Shown here in pieces: positions 30,474-62,206 of a DNA stretch of 64,000 nucleotides (positions are counted from its first letter, which is position 1; the number at the start of each line of letters is the position of its first letter). This stretch comes from Gammaproteobacteria bacterium. Its GTDB lineage: Bacteria; Pseudomonadota; Gammaproteobacteria; JAJPIJ01. The stretch covers positions 2,351 to 66,350 of the forward strand of contig JAJVIQ010000006.1 of NCBI GenBank assembly GCA_022071965.1, given 5' to 3'. The notes under the pieces were generated by a model. That model ran no database searches and was not told where the DNA came from. It worked only from the letters and a program-made list of their open reading frames with translations. Both the position numbers and the translations under genes were made by a program.

Positions 30474-32339
<1,866 letters not shown>

Positions 32340-32431: not shown

Positions 32432-32507
32432 GGGCCTGTAGCACAACGGTTAGTGCAGGGGACTCATAATCCCTTGGTTGCAGGTTCGAATCCTGCCGGG
32501 CCCACCA
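32432..32507 (+). tRNA. ileX: tRNA with anticodon CAU; most likely tRNA-Ile2 (lysidine, ileX-like), otherwise elongator tRNA-Met
   Basis: GGGCCTGTAGCACAACGGTTAGTGCAGGGGACTCATAATCCCTTGGTTGCAGGTTCGAATCCTGCCGGGCCCACCA is a 76-nt cloverleaf. It has a 7-bp acceptor stem with G1:C72, so it is not an initiator. The anticodon loop is CUCAUAA, the T-loop GGTTCGAATCC, and CCA is encoded. It lies directly after rpoD, as ileX does in E. coli, and is near-identical to E. coli tRNA-Ile2 in the anticodon and T arms. Confidence 0.85.
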
Positions 32508-33694
32508 TCCCCATCAAGGGGTTGCGTTTCCACCAGCCGCTTAGGCATCGCCTCTGCTACCGATTTGCTACCGAACGGTACTGCCGGGGTTGCTCCGATG
32601 AGCTGATCGAGGCGCGCGGCGATGCCGTCGTTAACCTGCGGCAGCAGGTGGCCATAGATATCGAAAGTGATCTGAATCGACGAGTGACCGAGCAGCGCCT
32701 GGATGCGCTTAGGCTGCTCGTTATTGACGATCAGCAGGCTCGCGTAGGTGTGCCGCAGGTCATGGAATCGAATCCGCCGCAGGCCCGCGCGCCGCAACGC
32801 AGGATAAAACCCGTACTTGAGCAGGTTGCTAGGGCTCTCAGGCTTGCCATGGCTGTTCGGGAACACCAAGTCGCGCTCGCCGGTCGGGCAGGCAAGTTTC
32901 CACCGCCGAAGCTCGTTTACGAGGCTTGGAGGCAGGTCCACCTGTCGGCGGGAGTTACGGCTTTTCGGCTCGGTAAACCGCCCGTCGCTGTAACTCCGGC
33001 GTACGTGGACCTTGCCGGAATTCCAGTCAAAGTCACCCCATTGAAGCCCCAGCAGCTCCCCTTGGCGGAGGCCAGTGTAAACCGCGGTCATGACGATCGG
33101 GCGCCAGCGTGGATCGCAGCTATCCAGCAGCCTTCGGATCTCGTCAGGGGCCAGAATGTTCGAATCAATCAAGTCCGCCTGCGGATGTGATTCCTTCACC
33201 TTCGTCACCAAGAGCGCAGGGTTGGAGGCTATCCAGCGATGCTTGAGGGCGTAGTTCAGCATCATCGATAAGACAGTTAGGGCCTTATTGACCGTCCGAG
33301 GGCCGACAGGCTTCTCGGTAACCGTTCGAAATGTTCTCGTTTTCGCCGATATGTAGGCTCGCAGTTTTTCTACGTCGGCAACCGTGATGCCTCGGACCGG
33401 CCGGTCTTTGAAGTAGGGAGAAAGGTGAAGCCGGATTAGCCCCTCGTAGCTTTTCCGCGTCGATGCGCGCACGGCGACCTTCACATGCCCGGCCAGATAG
33501 GCCGACACGAGAGCGTCGAAGGTTATTTGTTCTCGCTTTGCCTGAAACTCTTCATGCCCGATTTCGCGAAGGCGCTGGGCGAGCAGCTGTTCGGCATCGT
33601 GTTTGTTGCCCTTGATCGTCTCCCAACGCCGCACGCCGTGCTGATCGCGGTAATCAAGGACCCACCGGCTCCGGCGCTTCCGTATGCAAGCCAT
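32450..33694 (-). CDS. int: Tyrosine-type site-specific recombinase (phage/island integrase); its 3' end reads into the tRNA gene
   Basis: N-terminal SAM-like domain, catalytic domain with R...(HDLRHTYAS)...Y (ITFDIYGHLLP). The last 17 codons (GPGRIRTCNQGIMSPLH) are antisense to the tRNA 3' half, typical of an attL/integrase junction. Confidence 0.9.
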   Translation of the reverse strand: MACIRKRRSRWVLDYRDQHGVRRWETIKGNKHDAEQLLAQRLREIGHEEFQAKREQITFDALVSAYLAGHVKVAVRASTRKSYEGLIRLHLSPYFKDRPVRGITVADVEKLRAYISAKTRTFRTVTEKPVGPRTVNKALTVLSMMLNYALKHRWIASNPALLVTKVKESHPQADLIDSNILAPDEIRRLLDSCDPRWRPIVMTAVYTGLRQGELLGLQWGDFDWNSGKVHVRRSYSDGRFTEPKSRNSRRQVDLPPSLVNELRRWKLACPTGERDLVFPNSHGKPESPSNLLKYGFYPALRRAGLRRIRFHDLRHTYASLLIVNNEQPKRIQALLGHSSIQITFDIYGHLLPQVNDGIAARLDQLIGATPAVPFGSKSVAEAMPKRLVETQPLDGDGGPGRIRTCNQGIMSPLH

Positions 33695-33699
33695 GCTGC

Positions 33700-33888
33700 C
33701 TATGCCTTCTTCCTGACCTGCCGCGAGTACTTCTTCAGCACCATCTCAACCCCTTCACGCACGTACTCCGACCACGGCACTCCGGTTGCGCTCGAGAGCT
33801 CAATCAGCCGCTCCCGCTGTACACGCCCCAGGAAGACGTTGGTACGAACGCGATCCCGATATGGCCTTGGTGACATAGTACGAAACAT
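33700..33888 (-). CDS. Ribbon-helix-helix (CopG/Arc-like) small DNA-binding protein
   Basis: ...RVRTNVFLGRVQRERLIELSSATGVPWSEYVREGVEMVLKKY is a beta-strand plus two helices. The start is set at the internal ATG 33888 to avoid overlap with the upstream gene, and this is uncertain. Confidence 0.5.
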   Translation of the reverse strand: MFRTMSPRPYRDRVRTNVFLGRVQRERLIELSSATGVPWSEYVREGVEMVLKKYSRQVRKKA

Positions 33889-33904
33889 ACACACATTTCG
33901 ACCG

Positions 33905-34216
33905 TCATTCCAGGTCCACGTTCCCCGAGGGGCGGCGCTCAACAGCAGCGACCAGCTCCGCTAGCCGAAATCTTACGTACTTGCCGAACCGCAAGTGAGG
34001 GATGGCGCCGCGACGCGCCTGCTCGAGGAACCAGGACACCGGCACACCCGTGGCGGCAGCGGCTCCCTCGGCGTCTACAATTGTGTCCGTGCCTTCCGTG
34101 GGCGGGGGCGGCGGAAAAGCCAAGCGTGCGAGCCGCAGCGCCTCCTCGCGCATTTCGGGCGTCAGGGCGAGCCGCTCGCCGGCGACATCGATTACAAGAA
34201 GTGGGGGGCTAGCCAT
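33905..34216 (-). CDS. Helix-turn-helix excisionase/AlpA-MerR-like DNA-binding protein
   Basis: MASPPLLVIDVAGERLALTPE...IVDAEGAAAATGVPVSWFLEQARRGAIPHLRFGKYVRFRLAELVAAV has an HTH_17-like C-terminus. Start at ATG 34216. The N-terminal 48 aa of the ORF-track ORF are an Arg/Pro-rich artefact. Confidence 0.65.
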   Translation of the reverse strand: MASPPLLVIDVAGERLALTPEMREEALRLARLAFPPPPPTEGTDTIVDAEGAAAATGVPVSWFLEQARRGAIPHLRFGKYVRFRLAELVAAVERRPSGNVDLE

Positions 34217-34473
34217 GGCGCCCGGCGTCGAATTTCTCCGACGCCCCGGCGTGGTCGACCGAACATGGGGACCGCTGACGCCCAGTCCCTGACCGCGCCG
34301 GGGAGCCGGTGAGTAGCGGCGGGGTCTGGTGCCAACGCTCCGGGCACCCCGCCGCTGCAACTACTCCGCCGCGTATAGGAAGAGGGGAGGCGGCGAAGTA
34401 GACGCCGCCCCCCTCTCTGACCCCGCCAGCGCGTGCCGGCGAGGTTCGGCGAGGTTGGCGATGTTGTCGCCGT

Positions 34474-36573
34474 TTACCGGCCATGCTCTTCAACCATTAG
34501 TGGGACAAAGTGCGGGTGCAGATAGGTCTTACGCCCCCCCTGCTTGCACTGCTGTGGGAAGTCGGCAGGGAACACTCGGCCAGATGCTTCGAGTTCGGCC
34601 AAGGCGGCCCGTAGCTGTTCCCGCGGCATGATTTTTCGGGTCTCCAGGGAGCTTTTGGTGTGCCGATACCCTTGCTGAAGCTCCTCCACCAGGAATGCCA
34701 GAACCCTGTCAGCGCAGCGTTGCCTGACCATGGACGGCGGCTCCTTGAACTCGATGGCATACGTATAGGTGTACCCGCTGCGCCGCAGCCAAATGATCGG
34801 CTGGTTGGGACTCGTGTAACTCGAGGTACGTGCGAGTACCAAGATCTGGTCTCCACTCTTATACTCTAGCCCCGGCGGAGGCTGTCGGTTGGCCTTATCA
34901 TCGTGCGATTGGACCACTGCCACCATGCGCGCTCCATCCGGCAGCGCACTGCCGCCACGTGAGGTATAAATATCCATCGTTCTCTCGCGGGCATTGCTCT
35001 TGCCGGTATGTTGCACGACCCGCACGCAACAGCCGAGGGCCGAAACAATGCGGCGCGCGGCAAGGACAAGTGCCTGCTCGTTATCGTTTATGAAACGCTC
35101 CCCCGCACCAAAGCTGATCGCCGGGTCGAAGATCACCAGCATGGGGGGCTCCTTCTTGCACCGCTCTATAATCATGTCGGCAAGGCCAGTGAGCACGATG
35201 TTGTTTCCCTCGTCGAGTTCGGCGAGCCGGCACACCGTCCCCGATACGTCCCATATTAAGCTGCGGGCACGCACGGTCGCCTGCTGCTCTTCATCGAGTT
35301 CCAAGCCGGTCATAATCGCTCTTAACCGAGCGATCAATCGCTCGCGGGCATCTTCGGCGGTAACGATAAGCACTGCGCCGGGATTCATGACCTGCAGCCC
35401 GTAAAGCGGCCGACCGAGCGTGATATGTACGGCCTCATATAGGTACAGCGTGGTCTTTCCTGTCTTACCTGGTGCGACGAACAGCGATACATCGGCATGT
35501 AGGTACTCCTCCACGATGCAGGTTGGTGCGAGGGCTGCCGCTTGCGCCTCCTCCGCTGTCACACGGAGCTCCGTCAACTCCGGCATATCCGGGTAGGCTG
35601 GGGCTAAGCTCTTCGGGATGTAGCCAGATCGCTTGTCCCCACCGTTCGGTTTTGTCCAGCCGCGGCGTGTAGCTTCCGCGAATACAAAGCGCTGATCGAT
35701 GCTGTTCGACTGGAGACTGTCCCACACCCGCGCTGCATCTGCCGGGTCGAACTTCGTCGATGTCGCCGACCATTCCAACCACAGCCCACGCCCAACCTCG
35801 CCAATGGTCTTCAGCGCCATGCCTACCTTCACCCAAAGGTCGCGGTCATCGGCAGGTATGAAGTACAGGGCTGACCTGAGATCTCCAACGGCTGAAGGCG
35901 CAATGGGTTGGCCTTGACCAGTGTTGTTGCGTGCCCGCTCGGTTACCGTGACCGGCGGCAGTGCGCGCAAGATTTCGCCGAGCGAGTACGGCTGAGCGCC
36001 ACTTGTCGAGGCTATGCGGACCATCCACGGGTGCTCGCGATCCTTCATGTGGAAGAACCCTGGCAGGCGTAGGACCCGCGCCGGGTCCTTGGCGTTAGGA
36101 TCGCTGCCGTAATCGCTTACCAGCCTCGCCTGTACAGGCCGGTACTCCTCGACGGACATCCCCTCGACAAACAGGTATCGGTGAAATTTGCCTGCCGATG
36201 ATTCGACAACAACATGCGGCTCTAAAGGCAGCGGCTTTCCGTACCCATCATCCTCCTGAAATAAGCAACGAATCCGCGTCACGTTCTCATTGGAGCGGCC
36301 CGCGCCGTCCCCCTGCTGCACCATTACGTACACGCCTGCGCCCTGGCGATTCAGTTCGGCAAGAGTGCTTGCATGTTGTTCCAACGTGCCTTGAAGCACT
36401 CGTGCAAGACTGCGGTCTTTTCGGTTCTTGTCATCATCGAAGGTCTGAAAGGTGAAGGACTCCGTTGCCTCGTCGAGTAGTGTCAAGAATCGCGATGCCT
36501 GGACAGTGTCAGGGGCCAACGAGCTAGCCGTTGACGAGGATTGACCGGACGGTCCGTCTGGTACCGTGTTCAT
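34474..36573 (-). CDS. Island replication protein: bifunctional primase-polymerase (prim-pol/PriCT-like) N-domain fused to an AAA_25/RepA-like helicase domain
   Basis: N-terminal ...FQTFDDDKNRK...GAGVYVMVQQGDG...FQEDDGYGKPLPLEPHVVVESSAGKFHRYLFVEG...LPGFFHMKD is a prim-pol fold. C-terminal ...VAPGKTGKTTLYLYEAVHITLG...LIVTAEDARE...VVQHTGKS has RecA-like Walker A and B motifs. The start ATG 36573 overlaps the AlpA stop (ATGA). Confidence 0.75.
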   Translation of the reverse strand: MNTVPDGPSGQSSSTASSLAPDTVQASRFLTLLDEATESFTFQTFDDDKNRKDRSLARVLQGTLEQHASTLAELNRQGAGVYVMVQQGDGAGRSNENVTRIRCLFQEDDGYGKPLPLEPHVVVESSAGKFHRYLFVEGMSVEEYRPVQARLVSDYGSDPNAKDPARVLRLPGFFHMKDREHPWMVRIASTSGAQPYSLGEILRALPPVTVTERARNNTGQGQPIAPSAVGDLRSALYFIPADDRDLWVKVGMALKTIGEVGRGLWLEWSATSTKFDPADAARVWDSLQSNSIDQRFVFAEATRRGWTKPNGGDKRSGYIPKSLAPAYPDMPELTELRVTAEEAQAAALAPTCIVEEYLHADVSLFVAPGKTGKTTLYLYEAVHITLGRPLYGLQVMNPGAVLIVTAEDARERLIARLRAIMTGLELDEEQQATVRARSLIWDVSGTVCRLAELDEGNNIVLTGLADMIIERCKKEPPMLVIFDPAISFGAGERFINDNEQALVLAARRIVSALGCCVRVVQHTGKSNARERTMDIYTSRGGSALPDGARMVAVVQSHDDKANRQPPPGLEYKSGDQILVLARTSSYTSPNQPIIWLRRSGYTYTYAIEFKEPPSMVRQRCADRVLAFLVEELQQGYRHTKSSLETRKIMPREQLRAALAELEASGRVFPADFPQQCKQGGRKTYLHPHFVPLMVEEHGR

Positions 36574-36800
36574 TCTTGCCCGGTACACTCGGGGGTGACG
36601 CGGTATTGCTCCATCCATTCGATTAGATCGCGTCGTATGTACCGGATGGTATGGTTTGAAAGGCGCAAGAACGGCGGCCCGCAGCGGCGGCTGCGCCATC
36701 CCTGTAAAGCGCGAACTGATAAGCCTAGGAGCCGTGCCGCTTGTTCTTCATTGAGCAGCTTATCGACCGATAAACCAGAGGAGGGGGTTACAACTGTCAT
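36570..36800 (-). CDS. alpA: AlpA-family phage/island transcriptional regulator (HTH)
   Basis: LLNEEQAARLLGLSVRALQGWRSRRCGPPFLRLSNHTIRYIRRDLIEWM is the canonical AlpA/Prophage CP4-57 regulator motif. Confidence 0.8.
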   Translation of the reverse strand: MTVVTPSSGLSVDKLLNEEQAARLLGLSVRALQGWRSRRCGPPFLRLSNHTIRYIRRDLIEWMEQYRVTPECTGQE

Positions 36801-37749: not shown

Positions 37750-40700
37750 TCAGAGGCTCTGAACAGAAAGTGCAGTCGCGAGTCTCAACGTCTGCGCAAG
37801 CTCGACCAGATGCTTGTGGTGCGTGAAGAACAACACCTGCGTCTTGGCGCTTAATTCGCTCAGCACTTCAAGGGTCGCCACGGCCCGTTCATCATCGAAT
37901 TGAACGAGAAGGTCGTCGACAATGACAGGGAACGGACCACGCCCCTGAATGTGCTGCTCGATGGCCGCGAGCCTCAGCGCGAGAAACAGTTGATCGCGCG
38001 TTCCCTGGCTCATCCCGGCGACAGGTACGCGTGCTGCGTTCGGACGTACACCTAGCAGTACCTGGCGATCGTCTTCGTAATCCACCGTCAGGCCGGAAAA
38101 ACTACCCAGGGTTATGCGCGCAAATACCTCGGCTGCACGATTCAAGAGCGGCCCTTGGTGCTGTTCCCGGTAGAGTTGTACCACCCGGTTGAGAAGCGAA
38201 ATTGCCAGCCGTGCCCGGGCATAGGTGCAGGCCTCCTTGGCGATGCGTGCTGCAATTGACCGTACAGCCTGCTGCGCTTCCGCGGCGGTTGTTCCTCCAT
38301 CGATTGCATCAAGGCGTTGTTTCGTGTTGAACACAACACCTTGCGCGGCTTCGACCTGGCGCTCCAGATCTTCGATCCCAGTTTCCGCATCCGCAATCTG
38401 GCGGGCAATGTCCTCAAGCGTCAAGCCGTCGGCTTCCTGTCGCACGCCTTCGACTGGCTGGGCGTTCTGCTGCACTAGTTGCTCGTCAATCTCGTGCAGG
38501 CGTTGTTGCAGACTCCGTTGCCGGATCGCCTGCGCTTCGATCTCGGGCAGTTGTTCCGCTGATTGGCACCCGGCTTGGCGAACCAGCTCGTTCAGCGCAT
38601 CCCGCGCCTGCGCAGCATCGACGCCCGCCTCGTTGATTGTCCGGGTCTCGTGTTCAATGTCGTTGGCAACTTGCTGGCGCATCGTGTCGGCACCGCGCGC
38701 CTCGGCCAGCGCAGCGTACAGTCGCTCGGCGACAGTATCCGGACTCCGCCCATCCGCGACTTCGGCAACGGCCCGGGCAACGTCGAAAAGCTTCGCCTCA
38801 AAGCCCGTTACGACAGACTCATGCTCCTTGGACTCCGAATCGCAACTGCTCAATTTCCCTAACGCGGCGGACAGCCGGGAAAACTGGTCCAGCCTCGTCC
38901 TAACTTCAGCGGGAAGCGCTTTCGCCGGCAGATGAAGGCCTTCGGTGACCTCGACCCACTTGACCTTCCACTCGGCAAGTTTCGCGGCTGTCTGACCTCG
39001 TTGCTTCTGCAGATCGCGCAGCTCGGCCATGCCCGCTTGAATCTGCTCGGAAACCGAATCGCGGTCGGCCCTTGCCTGTCGGGCGGCATTGATAGCCTTT
39101 TGCGCTCGCGTAACCGCACCTGCGGCAGATTCGTCGGTGGTCGAGGCAGCCAGTCCGCATGCCTTTAGCGCCGTATCGAGCAAGTTGCGGGCTCGGGCGA
39201 TATCGCCGACGACCAAGGTCCGCTCTGTTCGCAGGCGCTCCACCTCCCCGTATCTCTCGACCAGTCGCTGGTGTCGGGCTAGCCATTCCCTCAAGGCGGC
39301 TGGTGAAATATCGGAGCGACGAAGCGGCGCGACGAGAACCTCCCACCGGTGCTGCAGGCCCTGACGCCTGTCGGCTAGCAGATCCCGTCGTTCCTCGTTG
39401 CGCTGCAGCTCGGCCTGCATGTCGGCAATTCGCTGGCGTGTTCCCTCCAGGTTCGTGGCGCGCTCGGTATCCGCCCGGAGCAGGTCGGCCAGACGGTCGG
39501 CTTCCCGGATCGCCGCTTCGAGCGCGGCTGCAAGTGCATACGGAGGCTGATTTCGCAGTTCCGTCGAGGCCGGCGGGGGAACGCCATCAATATATCTGCG
39601 GCGCAAGTCAGTCCACTTTGTGTCGCGCTCGGTGCGCGCCGTGGCAACTTCCGCTTGCGTGACCACCTCGCCGGTGGCCGCCAGTACATTGAGTTCGCTG
39701 CGGCGTTCCTCTAGATCGTGGGTGAGTGTTGCTTCCCTCTCCGCCACTAGACGCTCCTCTTGCGCGAGCGTGGCGAACTCGTTCTCGAATGTCCCTGCCA
39801 TTTCAGTCAGTGGGACTGTTAGCACCACGAGTTCCGAAAGCGAACCCGACCACAATGCCGCGGCCTCACGTTGCAGCCTCCCGTCCTCGTCGGCGATGTC
39901 GCGTTCAAGCTTTCGCCTGCGATTCTCGAGCTCGGCCACGCTGATAACATCCGCAAGGGAAGTCTCCAACTCTTCGACCTGTGCGGACTCAGGCAGCGTG
40001 GTAAGGCGTTCCTTCAGCCGCTCGATCGCCGCTTCCTTCGTGCGGACCTGTGCGTCAAACTGCTCATCACGATCAGTTAAGCGCCTATGCTCGTCAATGA
40101 GGGACTGCACACGGGCGATCAGCGTTTCCGGCGGCAACAGCTTGGAAGCCTGGGCGACCTCACAAGGCGATCCGATCTCCGCAAGCAGCTTCCGGATAGT
40201 CTCCGACAATTCAGCACGCTCTCGAACCAGTCGCGGCAGGGACTCTCGGGCCGAGCGATAACGGTCTATCGCATGAAACACCCCCTCGATAACGCTCGCC
40301 TGCTCCAGCACGCCCTCACGGACGACCAGAGCCGCGGCGTCGGCTTTGAGCTGTGCCAACCGAGACTCGGCTACGCGCTTCGTTTCCTCGGCCCTGCGCA
40401 TACGCTCTAGGGCAGCCACGCGCAGCTGCGCAACCTCGGCTGGCAAGGGGCGAATGTGCGCAAGACCTTCTGCTTCCTTTTGCTTGGCCGCGCGTTCAGC
40501 GAGCAAGGGCAGGTTGGCGCGGATACGCTGTAAACGCTGCTGCTCGGTTCGCTTGCCCTTGAGCGCCTCACGCAGCTGCGCGTACATCAATTCGGCCTGA
40601 CGGTGTTCGCGCTTCGCCACTTCCCATTCAGAAGTACGAACCGTCGCGTCTCGGAGGACCCGCCTCTGCTCCTCGAACTCCTTCAACGCGTGGTTCAGGC

Positions 40701-41268
40701 GCCCGGTCGAACCCCGTGGCTTGAACGTGGCTGCTGCTTCCTCGTCAAGGTCTGCAATGACGGTACGCAGGCTTGCGAGGCCGGCAGCCGCTTGAAACAA
40801 GCTGCGTCCTACCTCTCCTTCGCCGCGCAGCAATTCCTGGCCTCCAGCGACCAGCCCGGTCAGGTCCAAGCCGAAGAGATTCGTGTAGAGGGCTAAATCG
40901 AGTCCACCAACCAAATTAGCCGCCGTGCTGTCCGACAATGGCCGTTCCGTGATTTCGGCACCGGTGGTCTCATCAATGGCAAACAGGGTCGCCCTGCGAG
41001 CCTTGCGCCGCATTGCCGATAAGCGATTTCCGTCTGCAAGCAGCAGCGTCGCGCCCACGCGCAGCGCGTTGTAGTCGTGCAGAAATGCATCCCCGGTCCG
41101 CTCGGGTATGCCGAACAGAAAGCCGGTGACCGCGCGTAGGGTCGTCGACTTGCCGGCCTCGTTGGGTCCGAAGATCACATGAAAATTTTTGCCAGAGTCC
41201 GTTGGGAGCTCGATAATCCGGTCCCGGAAGGGACCGAACGCCTTCAGGTACAGGCGCACGAACATCAC
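37750..41268 (-). CDS. SbcC/Rad50-like ATPase (AAA_23/YhaN-like), 1172 aa with a very long coiled coil
   Basis: N-terminal Walker A FGPNEAGKSTTL and about 900 aa of heptad-like Glu/Arg/Leu-rich coiled coil. C-terminal ABC signature and Walker B/D-loop ...GMSQGTRDQLFLALRLAAIE...PVIVDDLLVQFDDERAVATLEVL. ATGA-coupled to the upstream nuclease gene. Confidence 0.8.
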   Translation of the reverse strand: MMFVRLYLKAFGPFRDRIIELPTDSGKNFHVIFGPNEAGKSTTLRAVTGFLFGIPERTGDAFLHDYNALRVGATLLLADGNRLSAMRRKARRATLFAIDETTGAEITERPLSDSTAANLVGGLDLALYTNLFGLDLTGLVAGGQELLRGEGEVGRSLFQAAAGLASLRTVIADLDEEAAATFKPRGSTGRLNHALKEFEEQRRVLRDATVRTSEWEVAKREHRQAELMYAQLREALKGKRTEQQRLQRIRANLPLLAERAAKQKEAEGLAHIRPLPAEVAQLRVAALERMRRAEETKRVAESRLAQLKADAAALVVREGVLEQASVIEGVFHAIDRYRSARESLPRLVRERAELSETIRKLLAEIGSPCEVAQASKLLPPETLIARVQSLIDEHRRLTDRDEQFDAQVRTKEAAIERLKERLTTLPESAQVEELETSLADVISVAELENRRRKLERDIADEDGRLQREAAALWSGSLSELVVLTVPLTEMAGTFENEFATLAQEERLVAEREATLTHDLEERRSELNVLAATGEVVTQAEVATARTERDTKWTDLRRRYIDGVPPPASTELRNQPPYALAAALEAAIREADRLADLLRADTERATNLEGTRQRIADMQAELQRNEERRDLLADRRQGLQHRWEVLVAPLRRSDISPAALREWLARHQRLVERYGEVERLRTERTLVVGDIARARNLLDTALKACGLAASTTDESAAGAVTRAQKAINAARQARADRDSVSEQIQAGMAELRDLQKQRGQTAAKLAEWKVKWVEVTEGLHLPAKALPAEVRTRLDQFSRLSAALGKLSSCDSESKEHESVVTGFEAKLFDVARAVAEVADGRSPDTVAERLYAALAEARGADTMRQQVANDIEHETRTINEAGVDAAQARDALNELVRQAGCQSAEQLPEIEAQAIRQRSLQQRLHEIDEQLVQQNAQPVEGVRQEADGLTLEDIARQIADAETGIEDLERQVEAAQGVVFNTKQRLDAIDGGTTAAEAQQAVRSIAARIAKEACTYARARLAISLLNRVVQLYREQHQGPLLNRAAEVFARITLGSFSGLTVDYEDDRQVLLGVRPNAARVPVAGMSQGTRDQLFLALRLAAIEQHIQGRGPFPVIVDDLLVQFDDERAVATLEVLSELSAKTQVLFFTHHKHLVELAQTLRLATALSVQSL

Positions 41269-42524
41269 GTAGCACCCCCGCCTCCGGCAAGGCGAGCCAG
41301 CAACTCGCCTTCTGCCGCGCCCAAGAGATCGCGCAGAACATCGAGAGCATCGAGCCGCAACAACTCATCCTGGTTCAGATCGGCCGGAAGCTTCTGCTTC
41401 AGTTCCTTCAGGGCATCGTTGGCAAACGAGGTGAGCTGTACCCCATCTTGCGCCAGCGCCTTGAGCTCCCTTACGAGAAGCGCGACTGGATCATCGCCAG
41501 CGGCGAGTCGATCAATCTCGATCGGTGGGCGGACACGGAGATCGACTTTCTCCAGCCAGGCGTTGCCCCCCGACGCGTCTAGTGCGATGGCGCGAAGCTG
41601 TTCAGCCATGACTTCCGGTCGTGCGGATACTTCGCGATGCACAGCGCCCGCGCCATGCACGCGAATGCGCAACCCGAGGATTCGTCCCTCTGTGTGAGCA
41701 AGCCTGGTCCTCACGTCGATTGCGACCCGGTCGAGAAGCGCGTCAAGGTCCGGCATCCCAGCCACGTCGATGACCAACTCAGACCAGCGCAAGATATCAA
41801 GTGCAACTGGCTCCGTGGTGACGCTGCCATCGTCGACAGTGACCAGTTCGCAGCCCTTTGCACCCTGCTCCCTGATGTGCCGGCCCTGGCTGTTGCCGGG
41901 ATACACCACCCACGGGTCGCGCGAGACGATCTCCCGGGCGTGAACATGCCCGAGCGCCCAGTAGTCGTAACCCTTCGAGCGCAAGACATGCTCCGTCGTT
42001 GGCGCGTAGTTATCGTGTCCAGGCCTGCCAGTTAGTGAGGTATGAAGGACACCGAGATTAAAGTAGCCGTGTACCGCCTGCGGATACCCGGCTGCAAGGT
42101 CATCGAGAACCGCAGCCGTTGCAAAGCTTTGCCCGTGGACGGCTAGGCCGAGGTTTTCGTCCGTAAATGTCGTTGGCGCCTTGTCAGGGAACAGGAAGAC
42201 GTTCTTTGGCAAGGGGAGCGACCGTGTCAGCTTGCTCGCGGCGTCGTGGTTTCCGCGAAGCACATAGACCGAGATACCGGATTCACCGAGCTGCGCCATC
42301 CCCTTGGCGAAGAACAGGCCCGTATTGAAGTCGGGCCAGTCGCCGTCGTAGAGATCTCCCGCGATGACGACAAAGTCCACGCGCTCGCGCAGCGCATGCT
42401 GGACCATGTTCTCGAATGCACGCCGGGTTGCCCCCCGCACCTCGTCCACGGGTGCGCCCTCATAGCGCTCCAGTCCCCGGAGCGGGCTATCAAGATGGAT
42501 GTCCGCGCAATGAAGGAACCGCAT
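41265..42524 (-). CDS. SbcD/Mre11-like metallophosphoesterase (DNA repair exonuclease family)
   Basis: MRFLHCADIHLDSPL (motif I), VIAGDLYD (II), RGNHD (III), ...GHVH (V) are the calcineurin-like phosphoesterase motifs in Mre11/SbcD order, and the C-terminal domain is present. Confidence 0.8.
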   Translation of the reverse strand: MRFLHCADIHLDSPLRGLERYEGAPVDEVRGATRRAFENMVQHALRERVDFVVIAGDLYDGDWPDFNTGLFFAKGMAQLGESGISVYVLRGNHDAASKLTRSLPLPKNVFLFPDKAPTTFTDENLGLAVHGQSFATAAVLDDLAAGYPQAVHGYFNLGVLHTSLTGRPGHDNYAPTTEHVLRSKGYDYWALGHVHAREIVSRDPWVVYPGNSQGRHIREQGAKGCELVTVDDGSVTTEPVALDILRWSELVIDVAGMPDLDALLDRVAIDVRTRLAHTEGRILGLRIRVHGAGAVHREVSARPEVMAEQLRAIALDASGGNAWLEKVDLRVRPPIEIDRLAAGDDPVALLVRELKALAQDGVQLTSFANDALKELKQKLPADLNQDELLRLDALDVLRDLLGAAEGELLARLAGGGGAT

Positions 42525-43494: not shown

Positions 43495-44283
43495 GTGAGT
43501 GTCGCATTGAAATTTCTTGTCGGCATTCTTGTGCTGTGGCTCGTGCTTGGGGGGCTGGGGACCATGTTTGGCTGGTTAAGAGCGCTCTTTGAGCGTAGCC
43601 CTACGCCGCCACAAGACCGGTCGCCACGACCCGAGGTCCGCACCAAGCCTTCGGCGCCGAACACCTATCGGCCATCACCCCGCGCAGCCACTAGGCCGAT
43701 TAGGTTTACGAGCGGGGGCGCAAATCGCACTGGGGCATCTGCCCGCAATGCCGCTGATCTGTCAGGCATCAATGACGCTTTCACCGGAAGGCGCCTCGAC
43801 CTAAGCCAACCCGTGTACGAGTGCGTCGGCTGCCACGTATTCTACCAGGCCGCAAGCGTGGAGGTCCTGCGCGAGGCCAACAGCTCTCGGTGCATGGTCT
43901 GCGGTAGCACGCAGATTGCTGAGCATGGGAAGGGGAAGGGGCAGGAGCGCGCGGAAGCGCGCAACTATACGCCGAATGCGGTCGCCCTCAATAATTACAG
44001 GGAGCACATCGGACAGGTCATTACTTTCACCGGCTATGTCTATGATGTGAAGCAGAGCCGTCGAGGCCTGGATTACGCGGTAATGTTTGAGCGGGCATCC
44101 TGGACAAAAGGTCTCAAAATGGTTGCATTTAGGGGTGGCGTGCGAAAGTTGGGTGGTGCCGCCACACTAAAAAGCTACGCTGGGAAGACGCTGACGATTC
44201 GTGGACTCCTGATTCAGGACCCAATTTTCGGGCCGGAAATCATTGTTGATGACCCAGCGATGGTCATCCGAGTCGACTCATGA
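43495..44283 (+). CDS. Membrane-anchored zinc-ribbon protein with a C-terminal beta-rich domain, first gene of the Ubl-conjugation operon
   Basis: GTG start, one N-terminal TM helix (FLVGILVLWLVLGGLGTMFGWL), a Pro/Arg-rich linker, then CVGCHVF...CMVCGS (a CxxC x21 CxxC ribbon), then a roughly 110-aa domain. The stop overlaps the next ATG (ATGA). Confidence 0.6.
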   Translation: MSVALKFLVGILVLWLVLGGLGTMFGWLRALFERSPTPPQDRSPRPEVRTKPSAPNTYRPSPRAATRPIRFTSGGANRTGASARNAADLSGINDAFTGRRLDLSQPVYECVGCHVFYQAASVEVLREANSSRCMVCGSTQIAEHGKGKGQERAEARNYTPNAVALNNYREHIGQVITFTGYVYDVKQSRRGLDYAVMFERASWTKGLKMVAFRGGVRKLGGAATLKSYAGKTLTIRGLLIQDPIFGPEIIVDDPAMVIRVDS

Positions 44284-44534
44284 AGTGGCGCAACATTCCA
44301 AGAAATTACCGTGACCGGCTTGCCGAACTCACGGAGCAGTTATCCCGCGACCCTTACGCCGTTCTAGGGATCACAGAGGAGGTGACTGACGAAGAGGTTA
44401 AGCAAGCGTACCGTAAACTCGTCAGCGCTTACCATCCGGATAAGCAGGGCGTTTTCCTGCGAGTACATGCGCAGGAGGTCATCAAGATCGTGAATGCGGC
44501 CTATGAGCGCATTTGCGCGATGAGAAACCTATGA
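44280..44534 (+). CDS. J-domain (DnaJ-like) small protein
   Basis: DPYAVLGITEEVTDEEVKQAYRKLVSAYHPDK has the invariant HPD tripeptide and helix II/III spacing of the J domain. 84 aa. ATGA-coupled on both sides. Confidence 0.8.
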   Translation: MKWRNIPRNYRDRLAELTEQLSRDPYAVLGITEEVTDEEVKQAYRKLVSAYHPDKQGVFLRVHAQEVIKIVNAAYERICAMRNL

Positions 44535-45667: not shown

Positions 45668-45921
45668 CTGAAATTAATATCGTAATCCGCACTGCGGACC
45701 AGACCCGCAAGGCAGAAGTGACGCTACCAGGCTCCCACACCGGCGCCGATGTAATCCAAGCCGCCGTGGACAACTGGTCGTTACCACGAGATACGGACTA
45801 TTCCCTCGTCAACACACGCTCCGCCCAGCCTGTACAGCCCGCCAATAGCTTGGAAAAGCAAGGCGTACAGAACGGTGATGTGCTAGAGGTTCAGCCCGTA
45901 CTCGTGGCTGGGCTATCGTAG
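45664..45921 (+). CDS. Ubiquitin-like beta-grasp protein (BilA-like), probably made as a precursor ending ...VAG-LS
   Basis: 85 aa. INIVIRTADQTRKAEVTLPGSHTGADVIQAAV...GDVLEVQPVLVAGLS has a beta-grasp-like pattern. There is a Gly two residues before the C-terminus. ATGA-coupled to E1. Confidence 0.65.
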   Translation: MTEINIVIRTADQTRKAEVTLPGSHTGADVIQAAVDNWSLPRDTDYSLVNTRSAQPVQPANSLEKQGVQNGDVLEVQPVLVAGLS

Positions 45922-45927
45922 GCCTCC

Positions 45928-48137: not shown

Positions 48138-48160
48138 GGCCTCCCGGCGCGCCTGCGGGC

Positions 48161-48451
48161 TTACCGCTTTCCCCGCGCCACCACCTTCAGCGCCTCGATA
48201 TCCAGCATCGCCTCGGCCAGCAGCTTCTTAAGCCTCCCGTTCTCCGACTCCAACTCCCGCAACCGACGGGCCTCCGACACCTCCATCCCGCCGTATTTGC
48301 TGCGCCACAGGTAGAACGCGCCGTCGGAAAACCCATGCTTGCGGCACAGCTCCTTGACCGATACCCCAGCCTCCGCTTCCTTGACCGATACCCCAGCCTC
48401 CCCTTCCTTCAGAAGACCAATGATCTGCTCTTCGGTGAACCGCCTTTTCAT
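48161..48451 (-). CDS. IS3-family transposase OrfA (HTH), with an in-frame 7-aa tandem duplication
   Basis: [55 protein letters not shown]... leucine zipper. EAGVSVK is duplicated, coming from a 21-bp tandem repeat at about 48353-48394. Confidence 0.85.
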
Positions 48452-48566
48452 GTCCGTTCTCTCCTCCGAAAACGGACTCTACTAAACTCACCTTGGCACT
48501 GAAATCCGGGGGCAGGTCACACGGAGCCAGACTGCGATTCGCTATAGGCTGCGTTGCGATTTACAG

Positions 48567-50405
48567 CTAACCTTGGTCGAGTTTCGTCCTCCGCCAGACC
48601 AGAGACGGCGAAGGCCGAATCGTCGCTGCGGCGCTGTACGACTTACGGGCTTCCGTGAGATTGCCTTTAGCCTGCTGGATGTCACCCTTGAGACTTAGGC
48701 TGTAAAATTTGAATGCTGGAATGTCGTGCATTCGATTGGCCAACTCATCGCCGAGTTCGAACGTCGCCGGTTCTGCAAGTGGCTGGGAGACATCCCACGC
48801 TGCGAGAACTTCTGGGGTAGCAACCGGTGTTGGCACGTTCGCGAACACGCGCGTCTCTCCTGCCTGTGCGGCCACCACTCCTGCGAGCAACTGCACGCCG
48901 GGCATGTGTGTGACAGATGGAGAGGCCTCCTCGGCTTTCTGCAGGGCTAGCGCAGCTAGGCTAGGCCAATTGAGCGAGTTAAGAAGATCGGCGGTAAGAA
49001 CCCATTTGCCGGAGTCCGGCAGATGCGGCGATTCTCGTTCGAACTCGGTATATGCGATGCGAATCAGGGCTTCGGGTGGACCCTTATCATCTGTCGCGGC
49101 CTCCTTGAAGCGCTCGGACAGCTGCGGGTCGGCGAGCGCCGCGTTAATTTGCGCGGTCACACTCTTGGCGATTCTGTCCTGCTGGGCCTTGATTATCGAA
49201 ATGTCGGGCACACGGACGATCACCCTCCTGTCCGGCGCATTGTCGGTTCTCAAAATGAAGTGGTATTCGGTAATGCTAGGACTGGCGGACCGGGAAAGTG
49301 CAACGCTCATCCTTGAAGTTTGTTGAGCGGGAATCTCTCGCGGCGTGTCATCGGGCCACAGAAGTAATGCTGGATCGGAAACTTCCGCCAATGTAAAGCG
49401 AAGGGCGCTGCCTCCCGCATTGACAAGACGCGCGGATTGCTTGCCCAGAACATTGGTGAGATTAAAGACGGCATCTGCACCTTCGGACGTGAAATCGGGT
49501 GTCTCCAGCTTTGCTTCGAGCTCACGCCTCAGCACGTAATCGTTCAGGGCGTTCGCGAGCACGACAATGGAGTCATGCTCCGGCCGGTTAGGCTTGACGA
49601 TGTCGATGTGGTTGGCCTCGATGGCGGGCGGGCTGCCCTCGCAAAAGCGTGTGGCGCTCGACCATGTAACGATTTTGCCAGGTCCCATCGGAATAGTTTC
49701 GTAGGCGCACCGCACATGGGGCCGTTCGTTTTGCGACATTGAGTTCCATTCATCGCTTAATGTCTTCAAGAGATCGTTGCCATCTGCCTCCGTCATCTGT
49801 CCGAGCGCGGTATTTGGAGCGAACATCTGCCCAATCAGGGCAATCTTTGCGCCTTCCTGAGGCGTCGCGTAAAACACCACCACGGGCACTTTTCCAAGGA
49901 TATCCCGATGCGTAAGGAGCTCGCGCATAACTACGAGCCCTCCCATGCTGTGGGCAACAAACACAACGGCCGGATAATTCAAGATTCCGTGGTACTGGAG
50001 CCGTTCGTGTAGGCGATTCGCGGCTTCGCGAATATCGAATGAACCGCCTTTGAGCAGAAATGATGGAAACCCGAATACAAATGCATCTGCCTTGCCCTTC
50101 GTGTTCGGGTTCTCGTCCACCAGACCGAAGAATGTCTTTCCATTCGATGCTGTCCAAGTGTCGACCATGTCACCGAAGACACCGTGGACATACACCAGCG
50201 CCAACTTGGCCGGGGGCTCTTGCTGCACGACCCAGTGCGGATCGGGGTCGCTCGGGGATGTTATTGGGGAGGCTGGATTTACATCCGGCTCATTGTCACA
50301 ACCGCTGGACACGGTGAGACCCAAAAGCAAAATGATAACGGCCGCTAGGCGCACCACTGATCGAATCCTCCTGCTTCCCTTCGATCTGGCCCAGCCAAAT
50401 TGCAC
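48567..50405 (-). CDS. Lipoprotein with an alpha/beta-hydrolase (lipase/esterase-like) domain
   Basis: Lipobox LTVSSGC, then VYVHGVFGD...VVFVAHSMGGLV (a GxSxG nucleophile elbow), then a long C-terminal region of unknown function. Confidence 0.65.
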   Translation of the reverse strand: MQFGWARSKGSRRIRSVVRLAAVIILLLGLTVSSGCDNEPDVNPASPITSPSDPDPHWVVQQEPPAKLALVYVHGVFGDMVDTWTASNGKTFFGLVDENPNTKGKADAFVFGFPSFLLKGGSFDIREAANRLHERLQYHGILNYPAVVFVAHSMGGLVVMRELLTHRDILGKVPVVVFYATPQEGAKIALIGQMFAPNTALGQMTEADGNDLLKTLSDEWNSMSQNERPHVRCAYETIPMGPGKIVTWSSATRFCEGSPPAIEANHIDIVKPNRPEHDSIVVLANALNDYVLRRELEAKLETPDFTSEGADAVFNLTNVLGKQSARLVNAGGSALRFTLAEVSDPALLLWPDDTPREIPAQQTSRMSVALSRSASPSITEYHFILRTDNAPDRRVIVRVPDISIIKAQQDRIAKSVTAQINAALADPQLSERFKEAATDDKGPPEALIRIAYTEFERESPHLPDSGKWVLTADLLNSLNWPSLAALALQKAEEASPSVTHMPGVQLLAGVVAAQAGETRVFANVPTPVATPEVLAAWDVSQPLAEPATFELGDELANRMHDIPAFKFYSLSLKGDIQQAKGNLTEARKSYSAAATIRPSPSLVWRRTKLDQG

Positions 50406-58937: not shown

Positions 58938-60599
58938 TTAGCGACACACGGGAATCGAGTAGGCTCCACTCACTCGAACAATTCGCTGAATACACTGCCA
59001 GAACGGAACCGCCACACCATTACAGTTCGCAGGCAACACTGCTCCTCCCACGTGAAAGTATGGAATTCGCACGGAAGTCTCTGCATATGTGGCATTCAAT
59101 GTCAGCGTCATCCCACCTGCGTGGGAGGTATTTATCGGGTCAGGGTCCGCGCCAAAGTAAGTGGCTGTGCACCCAGTAACCGGAATGAGGCCGCCTGCTG
59201 ACCAATAACCGTCTCCGCACGTACCGCCACTCACGACAATGGGAGGCGTTTGGCCTGTGGGGAAGTAAATGCCCACAGTAAGGTACTTGAGCAAAGGGTT
59301 GCTGGTATCCGTCCATGACACATTGCTCAGATTATACGGAAATACATCCTGCAAACTACGCGTGACTCCCGGACAGAGGCATCCCGGTTGCGAATTGCAT
59401 TTTGATTCTATCTTGAGGTCGAGAGGCTCGTTGGGACTACAGTCACTGCCGTCAGCCCGCGTGCACTCGACTGCCACAGAATACGTTCCCGGCGATAGCG
59501 TGCCGAGCCCTAAAGGCACAAAGAACATAGCCGAGGGCTTGTCTACGGTGGTGGAGCTTCCCCATCCTCTTGGGCACACCTGTGGCGTTCCGTATACGGC
59601 GTCCGCCATGTCAGCAAGCGTTTTAGCAGTACAACCTTCAGTGTCCAGGATCAGACCGGGTTGGGGCTCGCCAGACAGAGTCGCTGCCGGTGATGTGCCA
59701 ACACGACCCCCGTAGCTAAAGCTTTGCATTATTGGATTAGTGAGCGATCCGCCGGACACCTTAATCGTAACCTCGTCAAGATCAAATCCATTGATCGCAA
59801 TCTTCACGCCCATTGCACGCGGATTCAACGCACTCAGTTCCGTTTGGGTAAACGTGTCTTTCGGATGCAGCGAAGCAGTATAAGGGCTACCGTGTTCGGG
59901 GTAGTTCAATACCTGAAGCGGGTTGCGCTTGGTATCGACGATATAGCCCAAATGCAAATGTGGAACGAGGCTGCCACTGCCACCGGAGTTACCGGTTGCC
60001 GCGATAATGTCCCCAACGTTGACTTGATTTGCAACACGGAATCTGATGCCCGGAAAATTATTATGAACGATAATCTGCTCAATTGGGCCCTTTGCCTTGC
60101 ATGTCGAATCAATCAACGCTTTGGAACTTGCTCCGTCGGCCACAAAAATTACTGTGCATACAAACGGATGATTAACACTAATCCGGAGGCCGCCAGCGCT
60201 CACAGATCGATGAAACTCGTAGTAGTCCAGCGCAAAGTTGCCGCTCACGATGGGAAATGTTGTCGAAGATGCCGCGAATAGATGCGCAAAGAGAAAGCGT
60301 CCATGATTGGCATCTCCTTTAGGCGCAATCTGAATTCTGTTCCCCGTTGTAGTCGGTGCATGATTGAAAGGATAAATGGCGACGATATTGCCAATAACGT
60401 TGGAACGTAGCGCAGTCCCAGCCGCCGCCCGGTAGTCGATACCATCGTGGAACTTGTTGCCCTCCCCGCTGAGATAGCGGGGCCCGAAGATGCTAGTCTT
60501 CGGTCCAGTCGTTGGCTCGGCGTATTGCGTTGCATACACGTCTGTTGAAAATAGAAACAAACAGCACACAACAATGTCTCTTGTCATCCGCACGAACAT
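58938..60599 (-). CDS. Secreted M23-family metallopeptidase (LytM-like) with extra C-terminal Cys-rich domains
   Basis: Signal peptide, ...FHDGIDYRAAAGTALRSNVIGNI... (HxxxD) and ...GNSGGSGSLVPHLHLGY (HxH). Local GC is markedly lower than the core. Confidence 0.75.
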   Translation of the reverse strand: MFVRMTRDIVVCCLFLFSTDVYATQYAEPTTGPKTSIFGPRYLSGEGNKFHDGIDYRAAAGTALRSNVIGNIVAIYPFNHAPTTTGNRIQIAPKGDANHGRFLFAHLFAASSTTFPIVSGNFALDYYEFHRSVSAGGLRISVNHPFVCTVIFVADGASSKALIDSTCKAKGPIEQIIVHNNFPGIRFRVANQVNVGDIIAATGNSGGSGSLVPHLHLGYIVDTKRNPLQVLNYPEHGSPYTASLHPKDTFTQTELSALNPRAMGVKIAINGFDLDEVTIKVSGGSLTNPIMQSFSYGGRVGTSPAATLSGEPQPGLILDTEGCTAKTLADMADAVYGTPQVCPRGWGSSTTVDKPSAMFFVPLGLGTLSPGTYSVAVECTRADGSDCSPNEPLDLKIESKCNSQPGCLCPGVTRSLQDVFPYNLSNVSWTDTSNPLLKYLTVGIYFPTGQTPPIVVSGGTCGDGYWSAGGLIPVTGCTATYFGADPDPINTSHAGGMTLTLNATYAETSVRIPYFHVGGAVLPANCNGVAVPFWQCIQRIVRVSGAYSIPVCR

Positions 60600-60613
60600 A
60601 GGTCAATCCCTTA

Positions 60614-61918
60614 TTAGCCGTCGCAGGTTGGACAATTGGAGATGACGTTGCCATCCTGAATTACCGAGTAGACGCCGATGGCAGTTTCTTCGTAAGTAGG
60701 AGGCGTGCCAACATCCGGGTCATAGCGATACTCCCATGTTTGGCCCGTGGTCATGTTTATGAACTTAATGAATCCGTCCTGCCCGGCTGCCGAGCCTGCC
60801 TCCGTGCCTTGCCACACGAGCACATGGCCGTTTCTCGACAGCCACGCGCGCCACACCGACACCGTAGGTCCAAAATCCTTCTTCTCAAATGAGCGCGTGC
60901 CCTTGTTGTCGTAGACCACAAGGTTCTCGATAGCATCGCCGTCACAGACCGGCAGAAGCACGGCCTGACCGGAGTGGGAAAGTGACAGGTCTGACTGGCA
61001 GAAGCCCTTGCCGGACGGGGCAGTTAATTGGTAGAGCTGACCGCTGGCGTCGTACATAGTAAAAATCGCGCTCTCCAGCTCCGCTTCGTCCGAATCGCCG
61101 GAAAGGACGGCGTTGTTGACGAGTGACGACGTGAAGACGCCTGCGCGTGTCTGATCGTCGGATACGACCGCCACCTCGATTATGGTGCGATCAAAGCTGT
61201 TACCCGCGGCATCTGTGAATCTGGTCGTCTGAGATCTTGTCACTGGAATGGTGTATAGCGTATTGCCAGTCGAGTCGATAAAACGCACCCCTGCGTTTGT
61301 CACAACGGCAACATTGCTATTTTGCGGCGGGGCGCTCTTGGAGAAGTCCACCCATGCGGCCAGCGACGTGACCGGCTTGTCCGAATCGGCGAACCGCGCT
61401 TCAATGACGAGATATATGCGCTGTTCTCTGTGGCTCTCCAACTCGCCGTGGAAGTACAACGTCACTGGTCCACTAGTCGGCGGAGAGCACGGAGGTCGGG
61501 CATGCCCGTATGTAGTCTTGTCGTGGTCGCTCTTTCGTGTGTTGATTCTGCGTGAAGGTGTCGTCTCATTCTCTCTTGCGCATGGATAGGCATCATAATT
61601 GTCACTCTCATCCCATGAGTCATACTTGTGCTCCCGACCATGATGTTCCCCGCGCGACGCCACTGCATTCAATGTCGCACGAGCGAGACGGCGCCCTGGC
61701 GTGCCATCCGGGGTGAGTACTCTTAGAACCGCGCTCTCGACGATCAGCCCCGGTTCGTCGACTTCGACGACTGCGTTCATAGGTTGGTCCCGGTAGACCT
61801 TAAGAATGCGTGGATAGATATAAGGTGCATCGAGACGAGCAGGCGCTGCGAACACACTGATACTTATCAATAGCAGAAAACATGTCGTGCACCAGCAGTG
61901 TCGGTAACTCATCGCCAT
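60614..61918 (-). CDS. Secreted hypothetical protein (434 aa), co-oriented with and 15 nt upstream of the M23 peptidase
   Basis: N-terminal signal peptide (CFLLLISISVFAAPA). No recognised domain. Low GC. Confidence 0.5.
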   Translation of the reverse strand: MAMSYRHCWCTTCFLLLISISVFAAPARLDAPYIYPRILKVYRDQPMNAVVEVDEPGLIVESAVLRVLTPDGTPGRRLARATLNAVASRGEHHGREHKYDSWDESDNYDAYPCARENETTPSRRINTRKSDHDKTTYGHARPPCSPPTSGPVTLYFHGELESHREQRIYLVIEARFADSDKPVTSLAAWVDFSKSAPPQNSNVAVVTNAGVRFIDSTGNTLYTIPVTRSQTTRFTDAAGNSFDRTIIEVAVVSDDQTRAGVFTSSLVNNAVLSGDSDEAELESAIFTMYDASGQLYQLTAPSGKGFCQSDLSLSHSGQAVLLPVCDGDAIENLVVYDNKGTRSFEKKDFGPTVSVWRAWLSRNGHVLVWQGTEAGSAAGQDGFIKFINMTTGQTWEYRYDPDVGTPPTYEETAIGVYSVIQDGNVISNCPTCDG

Positions 61919-62071
61919 TGCCTTTGTCGTGACTGTCTTTTAACTCACCGCGACCACGGCTGCGTGCGCATGCGAGTTTCCCTTGTCTGCTGCCCAACGA
62001 GGCAGCCAGCGATGAATAGCGGCAACACCAGCAAGTCGAATTGACGGCGATTCCGGCGTATTAAATGTTTC

Positions 62072-62206
62072 ATACGGCCTCCCGCGTTGTGCATTGCGAC
62101 AGCAACTGCTGGCCTGTTATAGGGTCCACCCTGCGCCTGGCTGGGTCACTGATCGGTCACGGATTGCGATCGCTCATCAGCAACGTGAGCAATACGTCGT
62201 CGGTAC
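62072..62206. repeat. Direct repeat copy 2 (about 135 bp)
   Basis: Same orientation as copy 1 with a few mismatches. Together the two copies bracket the two-gene M23 cassette (58938-61918). Confidence 0.9.

Follow-up and report, generated by a model that had tools for sequence, protein, structure and literature searches.

A mosaic genomic island, 30 kb or more in length and probably acquired by site-specific recombination, at a tRNA(CAU) gene downstream of rpoD in an uncultured gammaproteobacterium

The subject of this study is a stretch of 64,000 nucleotides (hereafter the window, to which all positions refer) from a Gammaproteobacteria bacterium of the JAJPIJ01 lineage (GenBank assembly GCA_022071965.1, contig JAJVIQ010000006.1, positions 2,351 to 66,350 of the forward strand). 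An original prediction, made from the sequence without database searches, had placed in it a genomic island of about 30 kb, integrated at the tRNA(CAU) gene that follows rpoD. Our analysis upholds the central part of this proposal. We consider it likely that a genomic island of mosaic make-up, at least 30 kb long, entered the 3' end of this gene, most likely one for tRNA-Ile2, by site-specific recombination. The left boundary is exact, the region is absent from close relatives, its composition is foreign, its integrase gene is intact and related integrases are found at the same site. The coordinates of the features are collected in Table 1.

Results

The left boundary

The window contains a single tRNA gene, for which ARAGORN and Rfam agree on the anticodon CAT. 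It starts 92 nt past the stop codon of rpoD (30477-32339), and on its 5' side lies the usual rpsU region, in the order YqeY, dnaG, rpoD. Among complete Escherichia coli genomes its best match is an annotated tRNA-Ile, 81.6% identical over the full length, and inspection of the acceptor stem by eye reveals the pairs C4-G69 and C5-G68, which we take to be marks of the lysidine-modified tRNA-Ile2. On these two grounds it is probably a tRNA-Ile2 of the ileX/ileY type rather than a tRNA-Met. The original prediction had also named rho among the upstream genes, and this was not borne out by the ten largest upstream open reading frames (ORFs) tested (window 1-32000), none of which matched Rho. These ORFs include genes for an EF-Tu-like GTPase, an FtsX permease, ferrochelatase, a PQQ dehydrogenase, asparaginase II, and SLT, AAA ATPase and Methyltransf_28 proteins.

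Relatives were chosen by a protein search with RpoD (94-96% identity), and the eleven contigs compared align to the window at 88-91% DNA identity over up to 12 kb upstream of the tRNA. L166 and L167 are from metagenome-assembled genomes (MAGs) held by NCBI, and L168-L170, L172-L173 and L174-L176 are from JGI or ENA metagenomes. The alignments stop at 32508 (L166-L170), 32512 (L172 and L173) or 32519 (L174-L176), that is, 1-12 nt past the CCA end of the tRNA; over the tRNA itself the identity is 100% for L166 and L168-L176 and about 91% for L167. When the 27 proteins encoded between 32.4 and 64 kb were compared by tblastn with L166-L170 none was present, and in blastn comparisons with L172-L176 the window was matched only upstream of 32520. 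The presence of the same genes in synteny in related strains had been named beforehand as the observation that would tell against an island; in the 0.2-10 kb of downstream DNA that each of the eleven contigs provides, no island gene follows the tRNA. Two further scans were made. Among the matches listed in a scan of genome contigs with rpoD, the relatives reached at most 68% identity and were of no use for synteny, and a scan of metagenome contigs with dnaG gave one close contig, L081 (88% identical), which stops inside rpoD.

The integrase and its target site

The integrase ORF is intact. Its final 58 nt are antisense to positions 19-76 of the tRNA, and its C-terminal 19 residues, with the terminus ...GGPGRIRTCNQGIMSPLH, are encoded by this antisense sequence; the claim that the integrase adjoins the tRNA and overlaps its 3' half is therefore correct. 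An alignment with five homologues shows no variation at any of the assigned catalytic positions, R210, H311-x-x-R314, H337 and Y347. Integrase genes that run across the attachment site of the element (attP) into its tRNA-derived core have been described for several tRNA-targeting integrase subfamilies, and the window integrase is like these in that the tail of its ORF is antisense tRNA; there is nothing unusual in this arrangement. The catalytic tyrosine is upstream of the tail, which may be without function.

The integrases nearest to that of the window in the protein collection share 52-58% identity with it, and the genomic contexts of three homologues were inspected. Two of them, on the unrelated contigs L162 and L163 (54-55% identical), lie at an rpoD-tRNA(CAU) site with a 58-nt overlap as in the window, and the genes 5' of the tRNA match the rpsU-dnaG-rpoD region. 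The third, on L161, overlaps a tRNA-Asn gene. The C-terminal tails of these integrases vary with the target tRNA (...GGPGRxRT...MSPL as against ...GSPGRTRT...INSHL). The shared site, taken with these target-dependent tails, supports site-specific integration by this enzyme family in preference to chance adjacency. The 10-kb flanks of the integrase homologues were also searched for a right attachment site (attR), which might have revealed a small element with both ends visible, and none was found.

Composition and codon usage

Measured in 1-kb windows, GC content drops past the tRNA from about 0.69 to 0.52-0.65; the range over the first 30 kb is 0.65-0.71, and the lower range applies across 33-62 kb. 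The GC content of third codon positions (GC3) is 0.77-0.93 in a core set of 19 upstream genes and 0.56-0.75 in most genes past the tRNA, the exception being the two ORFs of an IS3-family insertion sequence (IS), at about 0.80. Codon usage was scored as a leave-one-out log-likelihood per codon, with the same 19 genes as the core set. All 19 scored between +0.05 and +0.21, whereas the genes from the integrase through the 434-aa ORF (ending at 61918) all scored between -0.35 and 0.00. The switch occurs exactly at the tRNA, with rpoD having a GC3 of 0.93 and a score of +0.21 and the integrase gene a GC3 of 0.71 and a score of -0.10. The most foreign codon usage belongs to the HipA-like/DUF3037 pair and the M23-like genes, and within the block formed by the M23-like and 434-aa genes the scores are -0.33 and -0.20. 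GC content, GC3 and the codon test agree, and they confirm the patchy, lower GC and altered codon usage that had been described relative to the upstream core.

The right end

Neither a search that allowed up to 3 mismatches in 25 nt nor BLAST with a word size of 7 found a further copy of the tRNA 3' end in the window. The original prediction had likewise seen no clean attR by eye, and the weak tcctgcc near 62560 that it offered as a hint does not amount to a match at any length. In the relatives the native right flank consists of a gene for a 532-aa protein and then a DUF4440-MarR-DeoR-OpuAC block (see below); this flank, the 532-aa protein and the relic attR sequences of the relatives also have no counterpart in the window.

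Core-like genes, encoding DUF3237 and tetratricopeptide repeat (TPR) proteins, had been thought to resume near 62.7 kb. Their GC3 is 0.75-0.76 and their codon scores, 0.00 and -0.02, are intermediate and fall below those of every core gene. Neither gene was found in the flanks of the relatives when the relative contigs were searched. DUF3237 has one close homologue, 94% identical, on 1-kb metagenome contigs, the next being 72% identical, and no NCBI-sourced match exceeds 62%, though the RpoD proteins of two close-relative NCBI MAGs are in the same collection; as a sign of non-core status this last rarity is soft, since MAGs can be incomplete. From the codon usage, the flanks of the relatives and the lack of close NCBI-sourced homologues, we rejected the resumption of the core at 62.7 kb. 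A contig that is 95% identical to the window across DUF3237 (L164) diverges right past the stop codon, at about 62678, and then runs into a gene that the window lacks. A Walker-A motif and the sequence as a whole, and not a family search, are the grounds on which this gene was read as encoding a MalT-like regulator. The breakpoint is a true junction close to the proposed end, but it neither restores the core nor represents an attR.

The lack of an attR and of a native flank, the codon usage and the break at 62678 together lead to the conclusion that the variable region covers at least 32508-62678, and it probably continues to or past 64000. The right boundary proposed at 62206 is not supported, with neither attR nor native flank in the window, and the length of about 30 kb stands as a minimum for the mosaic region but not as the measured length of an island. 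Either the island continues past 64000 or its attR and native flank were lost by later rearrangement.

Contents of the site in relatives

Past the tRNA, the relatives display at least five different contents. In L174 and L176 the gene for the 532-aa protein lies about 120 nt past the tRNA, in what looks like an empty site, and L175 agrees with them over the first 130 nt, and then its contig ends. The native flank as it occurs in L174 reads TCTCCCCCAAGGACTCATGACTCACCTGCAC.... In L166 a 1-kb adh_short segment comes first, with the 532-aa gene behind it. L172 and L173 also have adh_short past the tRNA, and in L172 about 6 kb of further genes precede the 532-aa gene. Ferredoxin and cation-efflux genes occupy this position in L167, and L168-L170 have genes for Excalibur and AraC proteins, a CsrA fragment and a 1716-aa SLT/LPD38 protein. 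L166 and L167 converge again at a DUF4440-MarR-DeoR-OpuAC block.

The adh_short segment of L166 ends in a degenerate copy of tRNA positions 39-76 (33/38), followed by a native flank like that of L174, and the repeat also takes in about 50 nt of this flank. In L172 and L173 a 28-nt copy of tRNA positions 32-59 follows a similarly placed adh_short gene. This segment is a decayed mini-island without an integrase. The degenerate repeats in L166, L172 and L173 are relic attR sites; they show the form that an attR takes at this locus, and that integration at this tRNA has happened repeatedly.

The ubiquitin-like conjugation operon

Among the genes carried by the region, an operon for a ubiquitin-like protein (Ubl) and its conjugation enzymes stands out. 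Genes for a 262-aa protein and a DnaJ-domain protein precede those for E1, Ubl, E2 and JAB proteins, and the part from the DnaJ gene through the ThiF-type E1, YukD-like Ubl, UQ_con E2 and JAB peptidase genes spans 44280-47168. The Ubl ends in ...VLVAG-LS, that is, a glycine plus two residues. The E2 has FNPNV...GRVCLG and a zinc ribbon, the JAB protein has the JAMM motif HSHP..S..D, and the E1 is short, at 384 aa. Among solved proteins the closest matches are eukaryotic UBA1 and UBE2A and a Caldiarchaeum Rpn11-like protein, and not those of Bil, Bub or Cap2.

The E1 of Bil (bacterial ISG15-like) systems has an inactive and an active adenylation domain in tandem and a Cys domain. The Bil gene set consists of separate Ubl, E2, JAB and E1 genes (PMC11601596), and in this the operon of the window is alike. 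It differs in its short E1, in its extra genes for the DnaJ-domain and 262-aa proteins and in its response to the PADLOC models for Bil, of which BilD matched, weakly (1e-8), and the other three did not.

Other genes of the region

The remaining classes of gene that had been listed for the island (regulators, a prim-pol/helicase gene, an IS, SbcCD-like, CsrA, HipA-like and RHS genes) were each located, as was the Ubl system, with Pfam or PADLOC. The M23 assignment survives in part: the HxxxD and HLH motifs are visible, but the match is weak, at 24.8 bits, and falls below the Pfam cut-off. Next to the integrase, the true start of the HTH_17 ORF is probably internal. PHROG matches were obtained for the integrase, the primase and the excisionase-like protein. 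The SbcCD-like pair gave a weak match to LmuB in PADLOC. The HipA-like and DUF3037 genes are adjacent and match the PADLOC models PDC-M66A (E=3e-71) and PDC-M66B (E=7e-96), respectively, over their full length. The codon usage of the IS3 element is core-like, unlike that of the surrounding island genes, and for this reason suggests a recent hop from elsewhere within the same genome.

In the RHS protein a Dockerin_1 domain occupies residues 1187-1238 and a C-terminal domain of about 95 aa extends beyond the RHS core. The 261-aa protein encoded upstream of it has a weak Cohesin match, and a PEP-CTERM-like tail (VPLPSALLMLAGGLAALLPRIRK) was noticed in it by eye, although NCBIfam gave no PEP-CTERM match. 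Taken together, these features suggest a surface-anchored cohesin-dockerin pairing of the RHS toxin with this protein. The 434-aa protein encoded beside the M23-like gene has an apparent N-terminal signal peptide, also by eye.

The M23-like/434-aa block is bracketed by the two copies of a 138-nt direct repeat, which are about 92% identical with one indel, and on the minus strand each copy sits upstream of an operon. The repeat has no conserved ORF, significant fold or Rfam match, and no promoter or terminator consensus was found around copy 2, the copy that was scanned.

Outside the region, a 159-bp segment at 26355-26513, between plsY and tsaD, has imperfect inverted-repeat arms of 38 nt (24 nt perfect) separated by an 83-nt spacer. 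The orientation of the plsY-tsaD spacer is as in the window in L166-L170 and reversed in L173 and L174, and L175 gave no match. The segment may be either an invertible switch or a small palindromic element with insertions in both orientations.

Table 1. Features of the window, with the mini-island of three relative contigs in the last row
Feature	Position	Strand	Basis or remark
tRNA(CAU), probably tRNA-Ile2 (ileX/ileY type)	32432..32507	+	ARAGORN, Rfam 73 bits; putative integration target and left attachment site (attL)
Tyrosine integrase, 414 aa	32450..33694	-	Pfam Phage_integrase E=2e-26 and SAM-like domains; PHROG 1
Left junction: last 1-12 nt resembling native post-tRNA sequence, then unique island DNA	32508..32519	+	Alignments to relatives
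Ribbon-helix-helix (RHH) regulator	33700..33942	-	RHH_3, E=1e-11
HTH_17 excisionase-like protein	33905..34360	-	HTH_17 E=5e-4, below cut-off; tblastn matches in elements L161 and L163
Primase-helicase replication protein	34474..36699	-	RepB-primase, PriCT_2, AAA_25 (Pfam); PHROG DNA primase families
AlpA-like HTH_17 regulator or excisionase	36570..36800	-	HTH_17 E=2e-8; PHROG 66
SbcC-like AAA_27/SMC ATPase	37750..41268	-	Pfam
SbcD/Mre11-like phosphoesterase (Metallophos)	41265..42524	-	Pfam; NCBIfam sbcd/Mre11 partial matches
Ubl operon: 262-aa protein, DnaJ-domain protein, E1, Ubl, E2, JAB	43495..47168	+	Pfam, PADLOC, PDB matches, motifs
IS3-family element (rve and HTH_Tnp_1)	47250..48519	-	18-nt terminal inverted repeats, 3-bp target duplication CAC
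612-aa protein, weak alpha/beta-hydrolase similarity	48567..50405	-	Abhydrolase_6 E=1e-4, below cut-off
CsrA-family RNA-binding regulator	50748..50954	-	CsrA E=4e-23
HipA_2-like kinase and DUF3037 pair, candidate defence system PDC-M66	51146..52785	+	Pfam, PADLOC
RHS toxin, 1494 aa, dockerin domain	53186..57670	-	Pfam; NCBIfam YD repeat, Rhs_assc_core
261-aa protein encoded upstream of RHS	region 53186..58452	-	Weak Cohesin match (Pfam)
138-nt direct repeat, copy 1	58784..58920	.	Sequence repeat
M23-like metallopeptidase (553 aa) and 434-aa protein	58938..61918	-	Weak Peptidase_M23, weak Pgp3 (NCBIfam); lowest-GC block
138-nt direct repeat, copy 2	62072..62209	.	Sequence repeat; proposed island end (62206) falls at its end
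Synteny breakpoint	62676..62680	.	Similarity to L164 ends just past DUF3237 stop codon
DUF3237	62681-63142	-	Pfam; possibly accessory
TPR	63184-63918	-	Pfam; possibly accessory
Segment of about 1 kb, short-chain dehydrogenase gene only, between tRNA and degenerate tRNA 3' repeat	L166:12025-13062; L172:3034-4075; L173:10857-11898		

Discussion

We infer from sequence the mechanism by which the island was acquired, any present-day mobility and the functions of its cargo, and the following scheme is offered on that footing. Recombination by the integrase would take place between the chromosomal gene (attB) and the element's own copy of the tRNA 3' part (attP), leaving an intact tRNA at the left junction and an integrase gene that reads out across this junction, its last 19 codons being antisense tRNA. 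The RHH, HTH_17 and AlpA-like proteins may control or direct excision, and the primase-helicase may replicate the excised circle. The SbcCD-like nuclease, the Ubl operon, the HipA-like/DUF3037 pair, the RHS toxin and the M23-like peptidase would constitute cargo for conflict with phages and other bacteria, and the IS3 element would have inserted later.

Several points weigh against this interpretation. Composition is uneven inside the region, with the RHS gene (-0.03) and the IS3 element (0.00) close to core values in codon score, and given this unevenness the 30 kb may not be one element. There is no attR or tRNA fragment in the 31.5 kb downstream of the tRNA, and the flanking direct repeats, a defining feature of an integrated island, are still putative. 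The closest relatives available are about 90% identical, and they include no same-species strain in which the site is empty. All of the related sequences are metagenome assemblies or MAGs, and a chimeric join at the identical or near-identical tRNA is conceivable for the window, though very improbable.

A mosaic region is favoured over a uniform one because of the uneven composition, the break at 62678 and the 138-nt repeat that brackets the M23-like block. The same observations, together with the block-by-block variation in codon and GC values, the presence of IS3 and the stacked remnants with relic attR sites in relatives, would also fit a stack of independent acquisitions at a hot spot. In such a stack the integrase element would extend over no more than the first 10-15 kb, ending with the SbcCD-like pair or with the Ubl operon, and the RHS, M23-like and DUF3237/TPR genes would be older remnants or would have arrived by other routes. 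However, no internal tRNA fragment or second integrase lies between the supposed sub-islands, and mosaic composition is normal within single defence islands too; we regard such a history as a real possibility, although not as the probable one. It is also conceivable, but unlikely, that the window holds the left-hand portion of an integrative conjugative or mobilisable element of greater length, with the transfer genes beyond the window end. The right end is indeed outside the window, integrase, excisionase and primase-helicase modules occur in such elements as well, and past the tRNA L168 carries the 1716-aa SLT/LPD38 protein, of a kind known from conjugative elements. Nothing in the window speaks directly for this idea, though, and the ORFs scanned between 32.5 and 64 kb, a region of 31 kb, yielded no family of relaxases, coupling proteins or type IV secretion.

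An integrase, an AlpA-like protein and a primase-helicase form the core module of P4-like satellites and phage-inducible chromosomal islands (PICIs), which carry defence hot spots, and the PHROG matches noted above fall on just these functions. A prophage or helper-dependent satellite of this sort is nevertheless very improbable. Pfam scans of the island ORFs gave no capsid, tail, portal, terminase or capsid-redirecting family, and PHROGs, applied to ten ORFs of the integrase-side module (32450-37661 and 42714-44283), gave no phage structural gene. P4-like and PICI-like satellites measure about 10-15 kb, far less than the 30 kb or more seen here; neither half of the island has a near match in the plasmid collection, and the relatives of the primase-helicase in viral contigs are distant (39-49% identity only). 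We give equally little credence to an assembly artefact, by which a mobile element or DNA of another strain would have been joined to the rpoD contig through a tRNA shared with relatives. That the tRNA is identical in 10 of the 11 relative contigs, and that the related data are all metagenomic, would be in its favour. Against it, the integrase ORF stays in frame through 58 nt of tRNA, as it does in the independent L162 and L163, and the 12 nt past the tRNA still resemble the native flank; moreover, a chimera would still imply integration at this tRNA in a close relative. The conjugative, satellite or prophage and chimera explanations have no positive support in the window.

A mosaic island that entered by site-specific recombination, which we prefer, is of a well-known and ordinary bacterial kind, and adds one more tRNA-linked integrative element to those already described. 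The pathogenicity islands of E. coli at ileX, pheV or selC are tRNA-integrated islands with a phage-type tyrosine integrase. The present island is like them in its position at a tRNA 3' end, including one of the Ile(CAU) type, in its adjoining integrase, in its foreign composition and sporadic occurrence among relatives, and in its mosaic cargo with an IS. ileX is among the listed insertion sites of the E. coli LAA island (PMC7545054). The island of the window differs in its host, an uncultured high-GC gammaproteobacterium, in carrying defence and toxin genes rather than virulence cargo, and in that no attR was found. With P4-like satellites, PICI-like elements and integrative mobilisable elements it shares an integrase, HTH_17/AlpA and primase-helicase genes beside anti-phage cargo, but it differs in its size of at least 30 kb, in its RepB-primase/PriCT_2/AAA_25 protein and in that no capsid-hijacking, packaging or mobilisation genes were detected.

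The cargo, especially the Ubl operon with its DnaJ partner, is more interesting than the island itself. We put forward a broader proposal only tentatively, and doubt that it will hold in full: the tRNA-Ile2 site after rpoD would be a dedicated landing site, reused by one integrase family in this uncultured gammaproteobacterial lineage, and the island would deliver an undescribed type of Ubl defence, consisting of a DnaJ protein, an E1, a Ubl, a zinc-ribbon E2 and an Rpn11-like JAB protein whose sequences lie closer to eukaryotic and Caldiarchaeum enzymes than to those of Bil, Bub or cyclic-oligonucleotide-based antiphage signalling systems (CBASS), with the chaperone-like partner acting in target choice.

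For later work, the interval from 32.4 to 62.2 kb is not to be treated as a complete element. What the analysis does provide is a precisely delimited hot spot of integration in an uncultured lineage that has been little sampled, with at least two other members of the integrase family at an rpoD-tRNA(CAU) site. It also provides a set of candidate conflict systems, each of which can be tested individually: the eukaryote-like Ubl operon with its DnaJ protein, PDC-M66, the SbcCD-like pair and the dockerin-bearing RHS toxin.

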